Shown: piece by piece, positions 2,945 to 7,727 of the stretch
Layout of the letters: each line of letters begins with the position of its first letter
Numbering within the stretch: the stretch's first letter is position 1
The notes under the pieces: model-generated
The model's input: only the letters and a program-made list of their open reading frames with translations
What the model was told of the DNA's origin: nothing
Database searches by the model: none
Source: Candidatus Saccharimonadota bacterium
GTDB taxonomy: Bacteria > Patescibacteriota > Gracilibacteria > BD1-5 > UBA2023
Direction: 5' to 3'
NCBI GenBank assembly: GCA_042852035.1
Contig: BAAFHK010000001.1
Location: 150,001 to 182,000, forward strand
Length of the DNA stretch: 32,000 nucleotides
Made by a program: the position numbers and the translations under genes

Positions 2945-4246
2945 ATGATTGATATCAAAATCCTCCGAACGAATCCTGAGATCGTCCGCAAAACCCTCCA
3001 TGACAAAGTCACGAAATGAGTGGATCTCGATGAAGTACTCCGTCTCGATAGTGAACGTGTGAGACTCCAACAAGAACTCGATGCTCTCAGGGCTCGCAAG
3101 AATGAAATCTCTGCGAGTATGGGAAAAGGGAAGCCTGAACCTGCGGTTCTCGAAGAAGCAAAAAGCGTGAAAGAAAAAATCCAATCCCTCGAACCAGAAT
3201 ATGATCGAGTCGAATCTGAATTTCTCACGCTCTTCAAAAAAATCCCAAATATCCCAACTTCAGATACTCCGATAGGGCTCACAGAAGAAGAAAATGTGAC
3301 CGTTAAACAATGGGGGAAGATTCGAGAATTCGATTTTCCAGTCCGAAATCATGCCGAAATCGCTGAAATCCGTGGATGGATCGATAAAGAGCGCGCCGCT
3401 AATGTTGCTGGTTCTCGTTTTGCCTACCTCAAGGGTGACCTCGTGAAACTCCAATTCGCCCTCATCCAGTGGGTGATGGATACGCTCTGAGATAGTGCGG
3501 TCCTCGATAAGGTTATCGCCGAACATGGACTGTCGGTATCAAACAAACCATTCACTCCCGTCCTTCCTCCATACATGATCAAGACCGCTCCCTATGATGC
3601 GATGGATAGACTCGAGCCTCGCGAAGAACGCTACAAAATCGAAGGAGAAGATCTCTGGCTCCAGGGAAGTGCTGAGCACGTCCTCGGTTCGATGCACGCA
3701 GGGGAGATATTCGCAGAAGCCGATATGCCGGTCCGCTATCTCGGATATGCGACATCATTTCGTGGTGAAGCTGGTACCTATGGGAAGGATATGGAGGGGA
3801 TTATCCGCATGCACCAATTCGATAAACTCGAGATGGAGTCATTCTCTACCGCTGAGGCCTCTCACGATGAGCACCTCCTCTTCGCAGGACTCCAGGAATA
3901 CCTTATGCAGCAACTCGAAATCCCATACCAAAAACTCCAGAAGTGTACCTTCGACATCGGAAAGCCGAATGCAAAAGGATCTGATATCGAGGCATGGCTT
4001 CCAGGACAGCAGAAATATCGAGAGACGCATACTGCTGACTATATGACCGACTATCAGTCTCGTCGCCTCCAGACTCGTGTACGCAGAGCTTCAGGTGAGG
4101 TAGAGCTCATACACACGAACGATGCTACAGCATTCGCCTGCGGTCGTGCACTCGTCGCGATCATGGAGAACTATCAGAATGCCGATGCCACTATCACAAT
4201 TCCGAAAGTGCTCAGGAATTATATGGGAGGGAAGGAGAGGATATAA
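2945..4246 (+). CDS. serS: seryl-tRNA synthetase, 433 aa
   Basis: MIDIKILRTNPEIV start, N-terminal coiled-coil arm, and class II core (FRGEAGTYGKD, IRMHQFDKLE, TNDATAFACGRALVAIMENYQ). Three track fragments in one frame are joined by the tga at 3017 and 3488. Confidence 0.95.
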
Positions 4247-4269
4247 TTTACTTTCTAACCAAACTTAAT

Positions 4270-5469
4270 ATGACAGCCATTGTTGTAGTCTTAAATAAGA
4301 ATTGAGTTTGAATAGCTGCAGATAGGGCATGAAGTGTTAATTGAGAGGTAACAAAAGTATTTGATAGCAATAAGCTATTCAGGCTTTCTAGAACAATTCC
4401 AGTTGGATTGTCAGTATATGCAAATTCAGAATTCATGTGAGTACCATGGGAAATTCTAGTCAAAGAATATAAAAAAAATGATAAATGTTTACATAGTATT
4501 GGTGATTACAAAAGTGACTTTATAAAATTTCTCTGAAATTTTGATTTACATGATCCAACGCCGCTTGAAAGACAGGTAATTTATCATTTCTTTTCAAAGT
4601 TAAGATCAAAAACAATTACAACTATTGATAGAGCTATTGATAATAATCCATGACTAAATTATGATCAAATCACAGAGATTATTAAAAATGAAATCATTTT
4701 AAATACTTATAATGATATAAATTTATCAGTAAAGCAAGTATCTCCAAATATATGAATGACTTCTAAAATGATAAACGATATAATTAAATGAAATATTGAA
4801 TTGATTGCAGGGCAAATTAAAATAATTTTCAAAAATATCGAATTGAAAAATGAGGATTTGGAGCTACTTATTAAGGCAATTAAGCTAGAATTAAAGTACT
4901 TTATTTACTGGAAATCCTATTCGTGAGTTATAATTACTTGATTCTGAAAAAATGATATATTTCCCTCCCTGAAAGAAATTATATTTTATTGAAAAATTTA
5001 TTGAAAAATAATCTATAAAGATTGAGAAGACTTTGCTATTACTCATAAGGTTACGTGATGAATCATTCCTTTTGCACAAAAAGATGTTGTCCAAAATATA
5101 ATAAATTGAATAAATCCTTTAGTAGAATGAAATCTTAAATCGGAGACAATGGCACTTATTAATAAATCCAAACTATCTAAGCCAAATAAAGAACTTTTAA
5201 ATAAGTCAATTATTGAAAAATTTTCAGAAACAAAACGAGCTTACTCAGAAAAATTAGTTAATATGTTGGAATTTTTTTCAATAAATGAGTTATGAAATAT
5301 TGCTGAAACACTTATCAACCTTACCTCATTCAATAGAAGAGTGAGAATGGAAGATGAATCAGTTTGACTTTGAACCGATGTTGCTATAATATCTAAGTAT
5401 GATTGATTCATTTGGAGTAAGCGAAAACACTATTTTGAACCCAATTTAAATCCTCATTATTTTAAGTAA
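4270..5469 (+). CDS. hypothetical protein with proteasome-beta/HslV-like Ntn-hydrolase N-terminus, 399 aa
   Basis: ATG 4270 to TAA 5467-5469 with no TAA or TAG in frame but 23 tga codons. Starts M-T-AIVVVLNKNGVGIAADRAGS, and later has SGVIITGFGKNDIFPSL. Very low GC. Invisible in the ORF track under the standard code. Confidence 0.6.
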
Positions 5470-5470
5470 T

Positions 5471-5590
5471 ATGACAAAATTAGCAGATTTTGAAATCAAT
5501 GTACCTCCGGAAGTAAAAAAGATGAAGTTTAATTCTAAGAAGGATATTTATGAGAATCTCTTTAATCTAGATATTGATTTTAAGAACTAG
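5471..5590 (+). CDS. 39-aa micro-ORF coupled to the preceding gene
   Basis: The ATG lies 1 nt after the upstream stop. Peptide MTKLADFEINVPPEVKKMKFNSKKDIYENLFNLDIDFKN. The TAG at 5588-5590 overlaps the terminator stem. Confidence 0.35.
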   Translation: MTKLADFEINVPPEVKKMKFNSKKDIYENLFNLDIDFKN

Positions 5591-5609
5591 CCCAAAACGG
5601 GCTTTTTTT
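5589..5609 (+). terminator. rho-independent terminator
   Basis: Stem agccc/gggct with loop aaaac, followed by a T-run. Confidence 0.6.
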
Positions 5610-5765
5610 ATGCTTTAATTCTCTATGTATAAAATTAAAAACATCACTCTTAGTCTCCTTACGTCTCGCACCATCCTCATCCTATTCTCTACGGATGGGC
5701 GAGTCCATAACTATGAGCTTCACTAAGAATCTTGTCTCGTGAATATAAATCTCTAATGTTGTACC

Positions 5766-6203: not shown

Positions 6204-6866
6204 CTAATGACCAACAAACCACTCAAATAATCTCCCACTCTCGAGATATTCTGGATGCCACTGCACGCCATAGTGGGGGAGCGTTGTATGCTCGATGGCT
6301 TCGATTTCTTCATCGAAGGAGCTACGAGCAACGACACGGAGTCATGCCCCGAGCGAGTCGACGGCTTGGTGGTGGATGGAGTTGATTTTGAGCTTTTTGC
6401 TCACGTAGAGTGCTGAGAGGAAGGTATCATCTTCGATGTGGATCTCATCGATTTTCTCATAGCCACGTTCGGGTTGGAAGTGGTAGGTATTTTCTTCGAG
6501 GTCTTGTTTCAGAGTTCCACCGTGATAGACATTTATGAGCTGCATCCCTTTACATATACCGAGGATGGGCTTATTGTTTTTTGTAATCTCTTCCATCGAA
6601 GACAGGAGGAATCGGTCATAACTCGGGATGGTTCCACGAGCTCCGTCCATATCTCGACCATAGAGTGAAGGATCGATATCCTGTCCACCAGGGAAGATGA
6701 AGGCGTCAGAGAGATTGAGGTAGAATTTGATATTTGAAGAGAAGCAGGGGATGATGATGGCGATACTTCAGGTTGCTTCAATCTTTGAAATATAATCAAA
6801 TGACAGATTATTAAAGAGTCTGCCTGCATATTCCCGACGTTGAGCGAAGATACCGATATGTTTCAT
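6204..6866 (-). CDS. class I glutamine amidotransferase, peptidase C26 (gamma-glutamyl hydrolase-like), 220 aa
   Basis: GICKGMQ nucleophile elbow, HHQAV, and GVQWHPE. ATG 6864-6866 and TAG 6204-6206. The tga codons at 6768 and 6342 are read through. Confidence 0.9.
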
Positions 6867-6980
6867 AATTGGATTATGAGATTTTTTTCATTTTTTCAAA
6901 TGAGAATTCCTTCTTGGAAATGGATTCTTCCTTGATTTTCCCAAAGGAAAGATATCATAGGGTGTATAATAATCCTTTTT

Positions 6981-7727
6981 ATGAAATTTTTTCTCCTTCT
7001 TGCTCTTTTATTTTTTGTACCATCATATGCATTCGCGGCTTCTCTATGAGTTCCTGGAAGTGACCGTGATGAGCATGGATGTATCTGATCAGCAGGATAT
7101 AGTTGGTCTTCGCCACTTGAGAAGTGTATCCGAAGCTGGGAATACTATACTATCGATATAGCGTCGCTTCCTTTACTTGGTAATGAGAAGCTCGAAAAAA
7201 TGGTCCTTCGAGAAACCAAACGAATAGAACAACAATTTCGACAAAATGCCGAAGAAATCATCCGTGATATGAGTGGGGAGGTGATAGATCCAGATAGATA
7301 CATGCTCAATATCACCTATGAGGTAGTAAATACAGGAAGTATTATCTCAGTCCTTATGAATACCTATACCTATCTCTGAGGAGCACACGGTGCTGATACG
7401 GTATCTACATGGAATTACGACACCAAGGCTCGACGTCTTATCCCATTGTGGAAGGTGGTTACTCCGACTCGACTCAAGACAGAATCGAAGCGTATAGCTG
7501 ATTCACTCCAATCCTACTATACAAAAGAGGGATATCCTCTGGATAAGGTATGGCTCGAAGAGTGACTCAATCCAAAAGTAATAGCCAACTATAAGAGCTG
7601 GACTCTATCAACTGATGCGAGTGGGAACTTCCTCGATATGCTTGTCTATTTTGCTGACTATCAGGTAGGTCCACATGCTATCGGTATGCCAAAAGCGAAG
7701 ATCAATCTTGCTCCTACTTCAAAATAA
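6981..7727 (+). CDS. secreted DUF3298/DUF4163-like (RsiV-like fold) protein, 248 aa
   Basis: Signal peptide MKFFLLLALLFFVPSYAFA. Motifs YTYLGGAHG and FADYQVGPHAIG. Four tga codons. Confidence 0.75.

Follow-up and report, generated by a model that had tools for sequence, protein, structure and literature searches.

What is a strongly AT-rich pair of genes doing directly behind serS in a genome that reads TGA as glycine, and where did it come from? The locus in question lies in a 32,000-nucleotide stretch of DNA (here called the window) from Candidatus Saccharimonadota bacterium (GenBank assembly GCA_042852035.1, contig BAAFHK010000001.1, positions 150,001 to 182,000 of the forward strand), and consists of a gene for a 399-residue protein followed by a 39-codon open reading frame (ORF). 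An earlier note, made from the sequence itself, likened the large protein to proteasome beta and HslV subunits and could place it in no described family. Here, we find that the large protein, as judged from its sequence and predicted structure, belongs over its full length to PMI-4, an already described family of proteasome homologues, and is not a new kind of protein. Additionally, we find that PMI-4 genes are followed throughout the family by a small partner gene, and that the two together are a horizontally mobile unit, patchily distributed across bacteria and archaea.

Assignment of the large protein to PMI-4

The large gene occupies 4270..5469 of the forward strand (ATG at 4270, TAA at 5467-5469) and encodes 399 amino acids in genetic code 25; its product is predicted to be a proteasome-like, PMI-4-family N-terminal-threonine hydrolase. 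NCBI protein HHAS10_01520, filed under 'Candidatus Altimarinota bacterium', is identical to it. This candidate phylum belongs to the Patescibacteria group, and we take its name to be the current one for Gracilibacteria. Scans of the protein, and likewise of the 39-residue product, against Pfam, NCBIfam and PADLOC returned nothing significant, and a single-sequence search of PDB sequences gave coiled-coil noise only. A search of 5.8 billion proteins, on the other hand, recovered 287 full-length homologues at 28–38% identity, none of which carries a Pfam domain. Most are 410–450 amino acids long (the window protein is slightly shorter than the ~430 of most relatives), and those with organism names include Brocadiaceae, Marinimicrobia, Virgibacillus, Psychrobacter and Methanobacterium. 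Two homologues bear the JGI names 'L-rhamnose mutarotase' (P0004) and 'phosphopentomutase' (P0033); these look like annotation errors, with no supporting Pfam domain.

In an alignment of 40 homologues, M1, T2 and A3 are conserved in at least 90% of the sequences, giving an M-T-A N-terminus, and D18, K35, G219, P232, F268, Q270, D370, W382 and R385 are invariant. The window protein has all of these invariant residues. With Met counted as residue 1, D18 and K35 match the 17/33 spacing from the catalytic threonine within one residue, and T2, D18 and K35, encoded together with strands S1-S4 at 4270..4374, are the predicted equivalents of beta-subunit Thr1, Asp17 and Lys33. The family profile finds the beta subunit of Thermoplasma acidophilum (E 0.013) in the corresponding register: profile position 2, the threonine, aligns to Thr1 of the mature subunit in 3c91_H and to residue 9 of 1pma_B, a chain with 8 extra N-terminal residues. 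Toward the other end of the protein, the alignment shows a conserved motif, E-S-V-G-L-G-T-D-V-A-I-I-S-K-Y-D-G-F-I-W-S-K-R-K-H-Y-F (5356..5436; family consensus ETVGGPIDVAVISKGDGFIWIKRKHYF), which we take to resemble the GG-x-I-D-V-A-V-I-x-K-D-G segment of archaeal beta subunits. After strand S5, at a candidate position for the oxyanion-hole Gly47, the family consensus is Y-G-N and the window protein reads Y50-A51-N52.

An AlphaFold2 (AF2) model of the window protein on the 40-sequence alignment (pLDDT 87.3, pTM 0.83) has the alpha-beta-beta-alpha sandwich core of the proteasome fold, with strands S1-S11 and helices H1-H4. Searched with Foldseek against PDB, the model retrieves 26 chains at E ≤ 1e-3; the matches listed, with target-normalised TM-scores of 0.40–0.56, are all Anbu or 20S subunits, and the beta type accounts for nearly all of them. 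The best, Anbu and 20S beta subunits, reach E 1.6e-4 and probability 1.0. The top match among viral models (BFVD) is a siphovirus 'proteasome beta type-2 subunit' (E 2e-6, target-normalised TM-score 0.61). In the model, H1 spans residues 60-68 and H2 residues 77-90, and only short strands lie within residues 20-38. Two helical insertions interrupt the core, where a single one of about 150 residues had been supposed. Insertion 1 (residues ~91-215, encoded at 4540..4914) lies between H2 and the next core strand and is predicted to form five helices (99-125, 131-154, 165-174, 176-186 and 194-210), whereas insertion 2 (residues ~283-337, encoded at 5116..5280) lies between H3 and H4 and contributes helices 283-298 and 304-335.

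Because fold, register and catalytic triad agree, the reading of the large protein as a proteasome-like N-terminal nucleophile (Ntn) hydrolase with an N-terminal threonine, Met removal being assumed, is supported. Since the nucleophile directly follows the initiator Met, the predicted enzyme has no propeptide. The earlier note's proposal of a proteasome-type Ntn hydrolase with its threonine behind Met therefore holds; of the two likenesses it offered, that to proteasome beta subunits is borne out and extends to Anbu, PMI-4 being nearer to both of these than to HslV.

In over 10 PDB entries, the family profile also matches Cullin-3 at its N-terminal cullin repeats (E 7e-4 to 3e-3), more strongly than it matches the proteasome. 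The matched segment covers residues ~84-163 (window 4519-4758). This may reflect a bias in helical composition, or a true likeness of insertion 1 to a cullin-repeat bundle.

In 2021, Fuchs, Alva and Lupas described 22 new families of proteasome homologues (Bioinformatics 2021; PMC8665760). The most populous of them, with 501 sequences at nr90, is PMI-4, variant 4 of the 'Proteasome homolog with Multiple Insertions', which ranges broadly but patchily over all major bacterial phyla, Euryarchaeota and phages. Its long insertions follow H1/H2 and lie between H3/H4, and insertions at both sites are predicted to hinder the assembly of rings and double rings (PMC8665760). The family was described from sequence alone, without an assigned function, and the authors reported no informative gene context (PMC8665760). 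HDY66466.1, which they name as the PMI-4 representative (PMC8665760) and which is P0084 in our collection, matches the window protein with E 1.1e-45 at 31% identity and 100% coverage. This match places the large protein in a described family after all. Both insertions of the window protein sit at the two described sites (in the case of insertion 1, after core helices H1/H2; PMC8665760), and the predicted lack of a propeptide fits as well. The phage protein family phrog_5990 ('unknown function') likewise matches the window protein end to end (E 3e-76).

An exhaustive search with a PMI-4 profile among 1.84 billion representatives of clusters at 50% identity yielded 6302 clusters at E ≤ 1e-3, 3756 of them at E ≤ 1e-30. 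The family is thus far larger than was known in 2021. In the literature, we found no mention of PMI-4 outside the 2021 paper, and no paper linking proteasome-like proteins, PMI-4 or phrog_5990 to phage defence.

A small partner gene downstream of PMI-4

A scan of one genome per species detected PMI-4 relatives in at least 567 stretches, from which 80 loci across bacteria and archaea were kept. An ORF of at least 45 amino acids starts at -25 to +40 nt relative to the stop of PMI-4 in 95% of the 82 loci that have sufficient sequence downstream, compared with 14% of shuffles, so that the position of the coupled small ORF pointed out at the window locus is conserved family-wide. These ORFs encode 45–90 amino acids (median 63). 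In each of the three phage or satellite records opened, a coding sequence for 55–58 amino acids is annotated 3–25 nt downstream of PMI-4. In NCBI, the locus tags MRJ65_08690 (a PMI-4 homologue) and MRJ65_08695 (its partner) are adjacent. Database copies of the partner are all named 'hypothetical protein', and a Pfam scan assigned it to no family, antitoxin families included.

Most partners share one layout. A basic N-terminus precedes the motif [FY]-x-S-h-x-E-[FYW]-E-K-x-[YF]-[FY]-P, the Pro of which is invariant; a polar linker, the element D-P-x-x-h-G and an amphipathic C-terminal helix, L-A-x-E-S-L-x-x-I, come next. The ratio of nonsynonymous to synonymous substitution rates (dN/dS) is 0.10–0.43 in all 24 related pairs with unsaturated dS, which indicates that the partner is under purifying selection and is a real protein-coding gene. 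In an AF2 model of a canonical partner (pLDDT 79), a disordered basic tail precedes helices 14-21 and 23-31, with the invariant Pro at the kink between them, and a long helix 37-57. Foldseek found no PDB match for this model. Taken together, the sequences indicate that PMI-4 and a small, translationally coupled partner are co-inherited as a rule of the family, a pairing that seems to be unreported so far. One protein from the Logan assemblies (P0341) has 119 amino acids, twice the usual length, and holds the partner domain (63% identity to the query, 98% coverage); it could be a duplicated or fused partner.

In the window, the partner position is held by the 39-codon ORF MTKLADFEINVPPEVKKMKFNSKKDIYENLFNLDIDFKN, at 5471..5590 of the forward strand. 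Its ATG (5471) lies 1 nt past the PMI-4 stop and it ends with TAG at 5588-5590. An ORF of at least 39 codons at that start occurs in ~20% of shuffles, and the window ORF by itself is therefore not beyond chance; the case for its reality rests on comparative evidence. Both code-25 relatives of the window pair have ORFs at the same position after PMI-4, of 47 and 48 amino acids. All three code-25 peptides share the motif [FY]N[ST][KR]x[DE]hYxN..LD, which reads KFNSKKDIYENLFNLD in the window peptide, VYNTREELYKNFLRLD in that of L085 and TYSSRMEMYNELGID in that of L084, and which lines up with the canonical vF-x-S-x-x-E-F-E-K-x-Y-F. When these three peptides and the partner of a Streptococcus satellite were compared by Smith-Waterman alignment, all 6 pairs beat shuffles (p 0.007–0.044); for the window peptide against those of the two code-25 relatives, the shuffle p was 0.009–0.04. 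We had paired 'LADFEINVPPE' by eye with the YFP motif; this pairing was dropped, and the alignment of 'KFNSKKDIYENLF', backed by the two code-25 relatives, was used instead. On these sequence comparisons the 39-codon ORF is probably a short and divergent member of the partner family, and should be read as a short version of the family-wide partner.

Composition and origin of the islet

The two genes form the lowest-G+C stretch of the whole window. Between 4270 and 5590, G+C is 26.6%, as compared with 38.2±2.4% for other 1321-nt segments of the 32 kb (z = -4.7), and G+C at third codon positions (GC3) is 0.20, as compared with 0.24–0.49 in 26 other ORFs. The very low G+C reported for the islet is thus confirmed. 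The abrupt drop at the serS stop is also real, but the step is exaggerated because serS itself is GC-rich, and the islet's drop from the genome mean is ~12 points; the recovery downstream goes to about 36–42%, not to 50%. For this genome, serS is unusual in its own right, with 48.8% G+C and GC3 of 0.49, as compared with ~38% and ~0.31.

A recount bears out the heavy use of TGA for Gly in the large ORF, at 23 of 26 codons, versus 2 of 27 in serS and 0–67% in 25 other ORFs. The serS share lies at the low end of the window's range. The 23 TGA codons fall on 8 alignment columns with a Gly majority, where standard-code homologues have Gly and 5 of which are invariant (G219, G224, G226, G280 and G379), and on no Trp-majority column. 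The alignment therefore directly supports TGA=Gly in the large ORF, and code 25 applies. The two closest homologues (P0002 and P0003), at 37–38% identity to the window protein, show Trp at family Gly positions in their database translations, the mark of code-25 genes that were read with code 4. In a further homologue, from an uncultured bacterium in the SRP185410 co-assembly (L032), two in-frame TGA codons interrupt a gene that is otherwise intact and full-length, which suggests another recoded host or a pseudogene.

How did the pair come to lie behind serS? Among 80 metagenomic loci with a serS at 58–87% identity, none carries PMI-4 beside it. The closest (L093, 87%) keeps the upstream neighbour and has a homologue downstream, with other genes between. 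Because PMI-4 is missing from all 80 related loci, the window pair is an acquired accessory islet and, as the earlier note had suspected, not a core gene. That the islet is saturated with TGA-Gly codons argues, in line with the earlier note, for a donor pool that itself used TGA=Gly. The two code-25 relatives lie on contigs of 21% and 33% G+C, each with a large serine recombinase 1–2 kb downstream, which agrees with the proposal of a same-lineage accessory pool and a long residence under TGA=Gly. The window copy also shows the module to have long circulated in the TGA=Gly (Gracilibacteria/Altimarinota) gene pool, a small datum on recoded lineages keeping their own mobilome. On the 21%-GC contig, which carries the closest PMI-4 relative, a gene of only 15% G+C (L085, 1467-2156, forward strand), extreme even within this lineage, encodes a predicted membrane protein of 229 amino acids.

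Low G+C is not peculiar to the window copy. The pair is poorer in G+C than its flanks in 70 of 72 loci (median difference -9.1 points, Wilcoxon p = 2e-13); AT-richness relative to the host is a family-wide trait.

Mobile elements and neighbouring genes

PMI-4 is found in 13 of 50,697 phage records and on 10 plasmids. Among the phage carriers are Stenotrophomonas phages, a Porphyromonas prophage, and Streptococcus Javan prophages and satellites, in which it lies at the element's end. In a lambdoid Providencia phage, PMI-4 sits between Q/Dam and the holin, and in Virgibacillus the copy lies at a prophage end, after the holin and amidase genes and beside Mrr. The phage and prophage sites of the pair are thus of the moron type, by lysis genes or at the end of the element. 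In Psychrobacter, the pair is a bare two-gene islet, the neighbours of which differ between strains. The same pair (440 aa + 74 aa) is found on the Psychrobacter contigs L086-L089; between strains, an AAA_15/AAA_21 ATPase takes the place of a DJ-1/PfpI gene and, downstream, an MgtC/DUF808/UPF0114 block is inserted. The spot behaves like a small variable hotspot.

The pair occurs next to integrases and recombinases, and among genes of the restriction-modification, BREX, DISARM and MADS types. One chromosomal copy belongs to an island that also contains BrxC/PglY, a PLD-DEAD/SNF2 helicase, an AAA_15 protein and a gene resembling PAPS reductase. Across 300 flanking ORFs from 65 loci, the Pfam families with the highest raw counts are Eco57I and N6 DNA methylases, SWI2/SNF2, ResIII, phage integrases, AAA_15/AAA_21, DUF3800, Fic and DUF1156, and the commonest PADLOC models are mad2, mad3, DrmMI, NsnB, type I restriction-modification subunits and SoFic.

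The window copy lies among housekeeping genes, namely serS, Ogt, a gene with a PhnA/YjdM domain and one for a PdaC-like lipoprotein. Read with translation table 25, serS runs from 2945 to 4246 on the forward strand, with its TAA at 4244-4246. The spacer between this stop and the PMI-4 start (4247..4269, 23 nt) has no terminator-like site, so transcription of serS could possibly read through into the PMI-4 gene. The two-gene unit is closed by a forward-strand hairpin resembling an intrinsic terminator, AGCCC-AAAAC-GGGCT followed by T7 (5589..5610), which overlaps the stop codon of the partner; its stem-loop (5589-5603) has 5 pairs, 4 of them G-C, and a folding energy of -10.2 kcal/mol. The arrangement of a 399-codon ORF starting 23 nt after serS, a 39-codon ORF 1 nt after its stop and a terminator is accordingly as first described. 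We found no recombinase in the window, and a search for flanking direct repeats or att-like sites around the islet returned none. Further downstream, a listed 490-codon ORF (6255-7727, forward strand) is probably over-extended: only its C-terminal ~250 residues, which open with the lipoprotein-like signal MKFFLLLALLFF, match PdaC/DUF3298. In the closest relative (L093), serS likewise has a homologue of this product downstream of it.

Discussion

Superfamily Ntn hydrolases use the free alpha-amine and the hydroxyl of Thr1, and Met-Thr N-termini are substrates of methionine aminopeptidase. We propose that the pair may be a self-contained module of inter-genome conflict, acting either in defence against phages and superinfection or in addiction to a mobile element. 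Methionine aminopeptidase would expose Thr1 and so render PMI-4 active as a proteolytic effector, while its helical insertions, in place of ring assembly, would probably control what reaches the active site. The small helical protein translated along with it could serve as a stoichiometric regulator, that is, an inhibitor or bait released or cleaved on infection. Alternatively, it may be a dedicated substrate of PMI-4. Identity and mobility, as parts of this proposal, we hold to be close to certain. For the whole, an autonomous conflict module in which a protease effector is joined by a small protein as its regulator or substrate, we see an even chance. More tentatively, and with rather less confidence, PMI-4 and its mini-partner might amount to an unrecognised two-gene system of immunity or conflict, very widespread in bacteria, archaea and their mobile elements, in which the effector would be an N-terminal-threonine protease and the small helical protein a sensor, inhibitor or bait. 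We found no N-terminal-threonine (proteasome-type) protease in any described prokaryotic defence system. What is shown of a likeness to type II toxin-antitoxin systems is the two-gene, coupled and mobile architecture.

Several observations weigh against a role in conflict. Some loci, including those of the window and of Psychrobacter, lie among ordinary housekeeping genes. PADLOC-DB v2, which holds both known and candidate models, gave no match to PMI-4, its best hit (E 0.036) covering a 40-residue helical stretch. The defence-gene neighbourhood is suggestive, its raw counts having no background set and not being quantitative. AF2 models the invariant Pro of a canonical partner as a helix kink and not as an exposed cleavage site. 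The peptide of the window itself is shorter than the canonical partner, has no Pro at the aligned position and no C-terminal helix, and scores 2.7 bits on the hidden Markov model (HMM) of canonical partners, a score equalled by 245 of 2000 shuffles (p ~0.12).

These last features lead to the question of whether the window PMI-4 acts alone, the 39-codon ORF being a chance ORF or the remnant of a decayed partner; this could be true alongside any of the other explanations. It would account for an ORF that arises at this spot in about a fifth of shuffles, that is shorter than every canonical partner and that the general partner HMM does not match. Yet the ATG is placed 1 nt past the PMI-4 stop, the terminator is located beyond the small ORF and not before it, both code-25 relatives have an ORF in place with a shared motif, and the four short partners, including that of the Streptococcus satellite, which the short class resembles, are similar in all six pairwise comparisons at p < 0.05. 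We consider it unlikely that the window enzyme works without a partner. By analogy with connectase and MtrA, it is also conceivable that PMI-4 is a sequence-specific peptidase or transpeptidase and the partner its sole substrate. The enzyme would then recognise the xSxxEFEKxYFP motif and yield a protein tag or a matured peptide that acts in signalling, toxicity or modification. Such an arrangement would suit a partner with one sharply conserved motif and an invariant Pro, as well as the coupling and co-inheritance of the two genes; moreover, the example of connectase shows that a proteasome homologue can act as a monomeric ligase of high specificity, and the PMI-4 insertions are predicted to hinder ring formation (PMC8665760). 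PMI-4, however, is without the S3/S4 insertion that is connectase's signature, the AF2 model shows a folded protein of three helices with the Pro at a kink between two of them, the code-25 partners, that of the window among them, have no Pro in the aligned motif, and neither a conserved secretion signal nor a conserved downstream target gene was found. An enzyme-substrate pair of this kind is in our view improbable.

Does the pair instead serve the phage or mobile element that carries it? It might act in counter-defence, by degrading a host defence or repressor protein, or in the control of lysogeny and induction, with the partner as an adaptor. PMI-4 does form a PHROG of its own and is carried by temperate phages and satellites, and the proteasome homologues PPH and AAH are phage-borne too (PMC8665760). 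Against this, most copies are chromosomal (at least 567 species genomes, set against the 13 phage records), several form bare two-gene islets away from any phage genes, and the phage copies occupy moron-type positions, not early or regulatory modules. We hold service to the element to be quite unlikely. The fold and the intact catalytic triad would, in themselves, also suit an ordinary quality-control protease, a housekeeping analogue of HslV or Anbu that is AT-rich by chance. Such a gene would hardly be absent from all 80 related serS loci, patchy across phyla and domains, present on phages and plasmids, without an AAA+ partner, and far under the genome's G+C and GC3, and we regard this explanation as very improbable. 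An autonomous conflict module is the reading that we prefer. Whichever role applies, the conserved partner and the context of mobile elements and defence islands turn PMI-4 from an orphan family into a testable two-component system.

Comparison with known systems

The closest solved structure by Foldseek is Anbu (PDB 5nyw, 5nyj, 5lox), which likewise has an N-terminal threonine and no propeptide and, like PMI-4, is a proteasome homologue of bacteria for which no AAA+ partner is known. Unlike PMI-4, Anbu has ~235 amino acids and lacks the two large helical insertions, and it forms helical or ring assemblies; its identity to PMI-4 is only 8–10%. The conserved Anbu operon contains ATP-grasp and transglutaminase-like genes, not a small ORF. 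Connectase, the ligase of methanogens that acts on MtrA, offers an analogy as a non-ring-forming Thr1 enzyme of the proteasome fold that recognises a short motif in one protein target. It differs in having a two-helix S3-S4 insertion over the active site and no H1/H2, whereas the window protein has H1/H2 and does not qualify as a connectase; furthermore, connectase is confined to methanogens, and the gene of its substrate is not an adjacent mini-ORF.

HslV (ClpQ) shares the M-T N-terminus, the Thr1 nucleophile and the Ntn fold. In contrast to PMI-4, it is a compact protein of ~175 amino acids that forms a double hexameric ring and needs the AAA+ protein of the adjacent hslU gene. The window protein, with 399 residues, two insertions, serS, a 39-aa ORF and a PhnA-domain gene as neighbours, and no Pfam or NCBIfam match, does not fit HslV, and the 2021 classification puts PMI-4 in group II and not in the HslV/BPH branch (PMC8665760). 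PPH and AAH of the 2021 survey resemble PMI-4 in being proteasome-fold proteins spread by phages, but they belong to group I, are much smaller (PPH has ~140 amino acids), have no insertions and show no detectable sequence relation to PMI-4. Finally, with respect to PMI-4 as it was described in 2021, the window copy stands out in coming from a TGA=Gly lineage, in being slightly shorter and in having a shortened partner. To the description of the family as a whole, our analysis adds a conserved downstream partner, a systematic AT-richness, and an association with mobile elements and defence islands.

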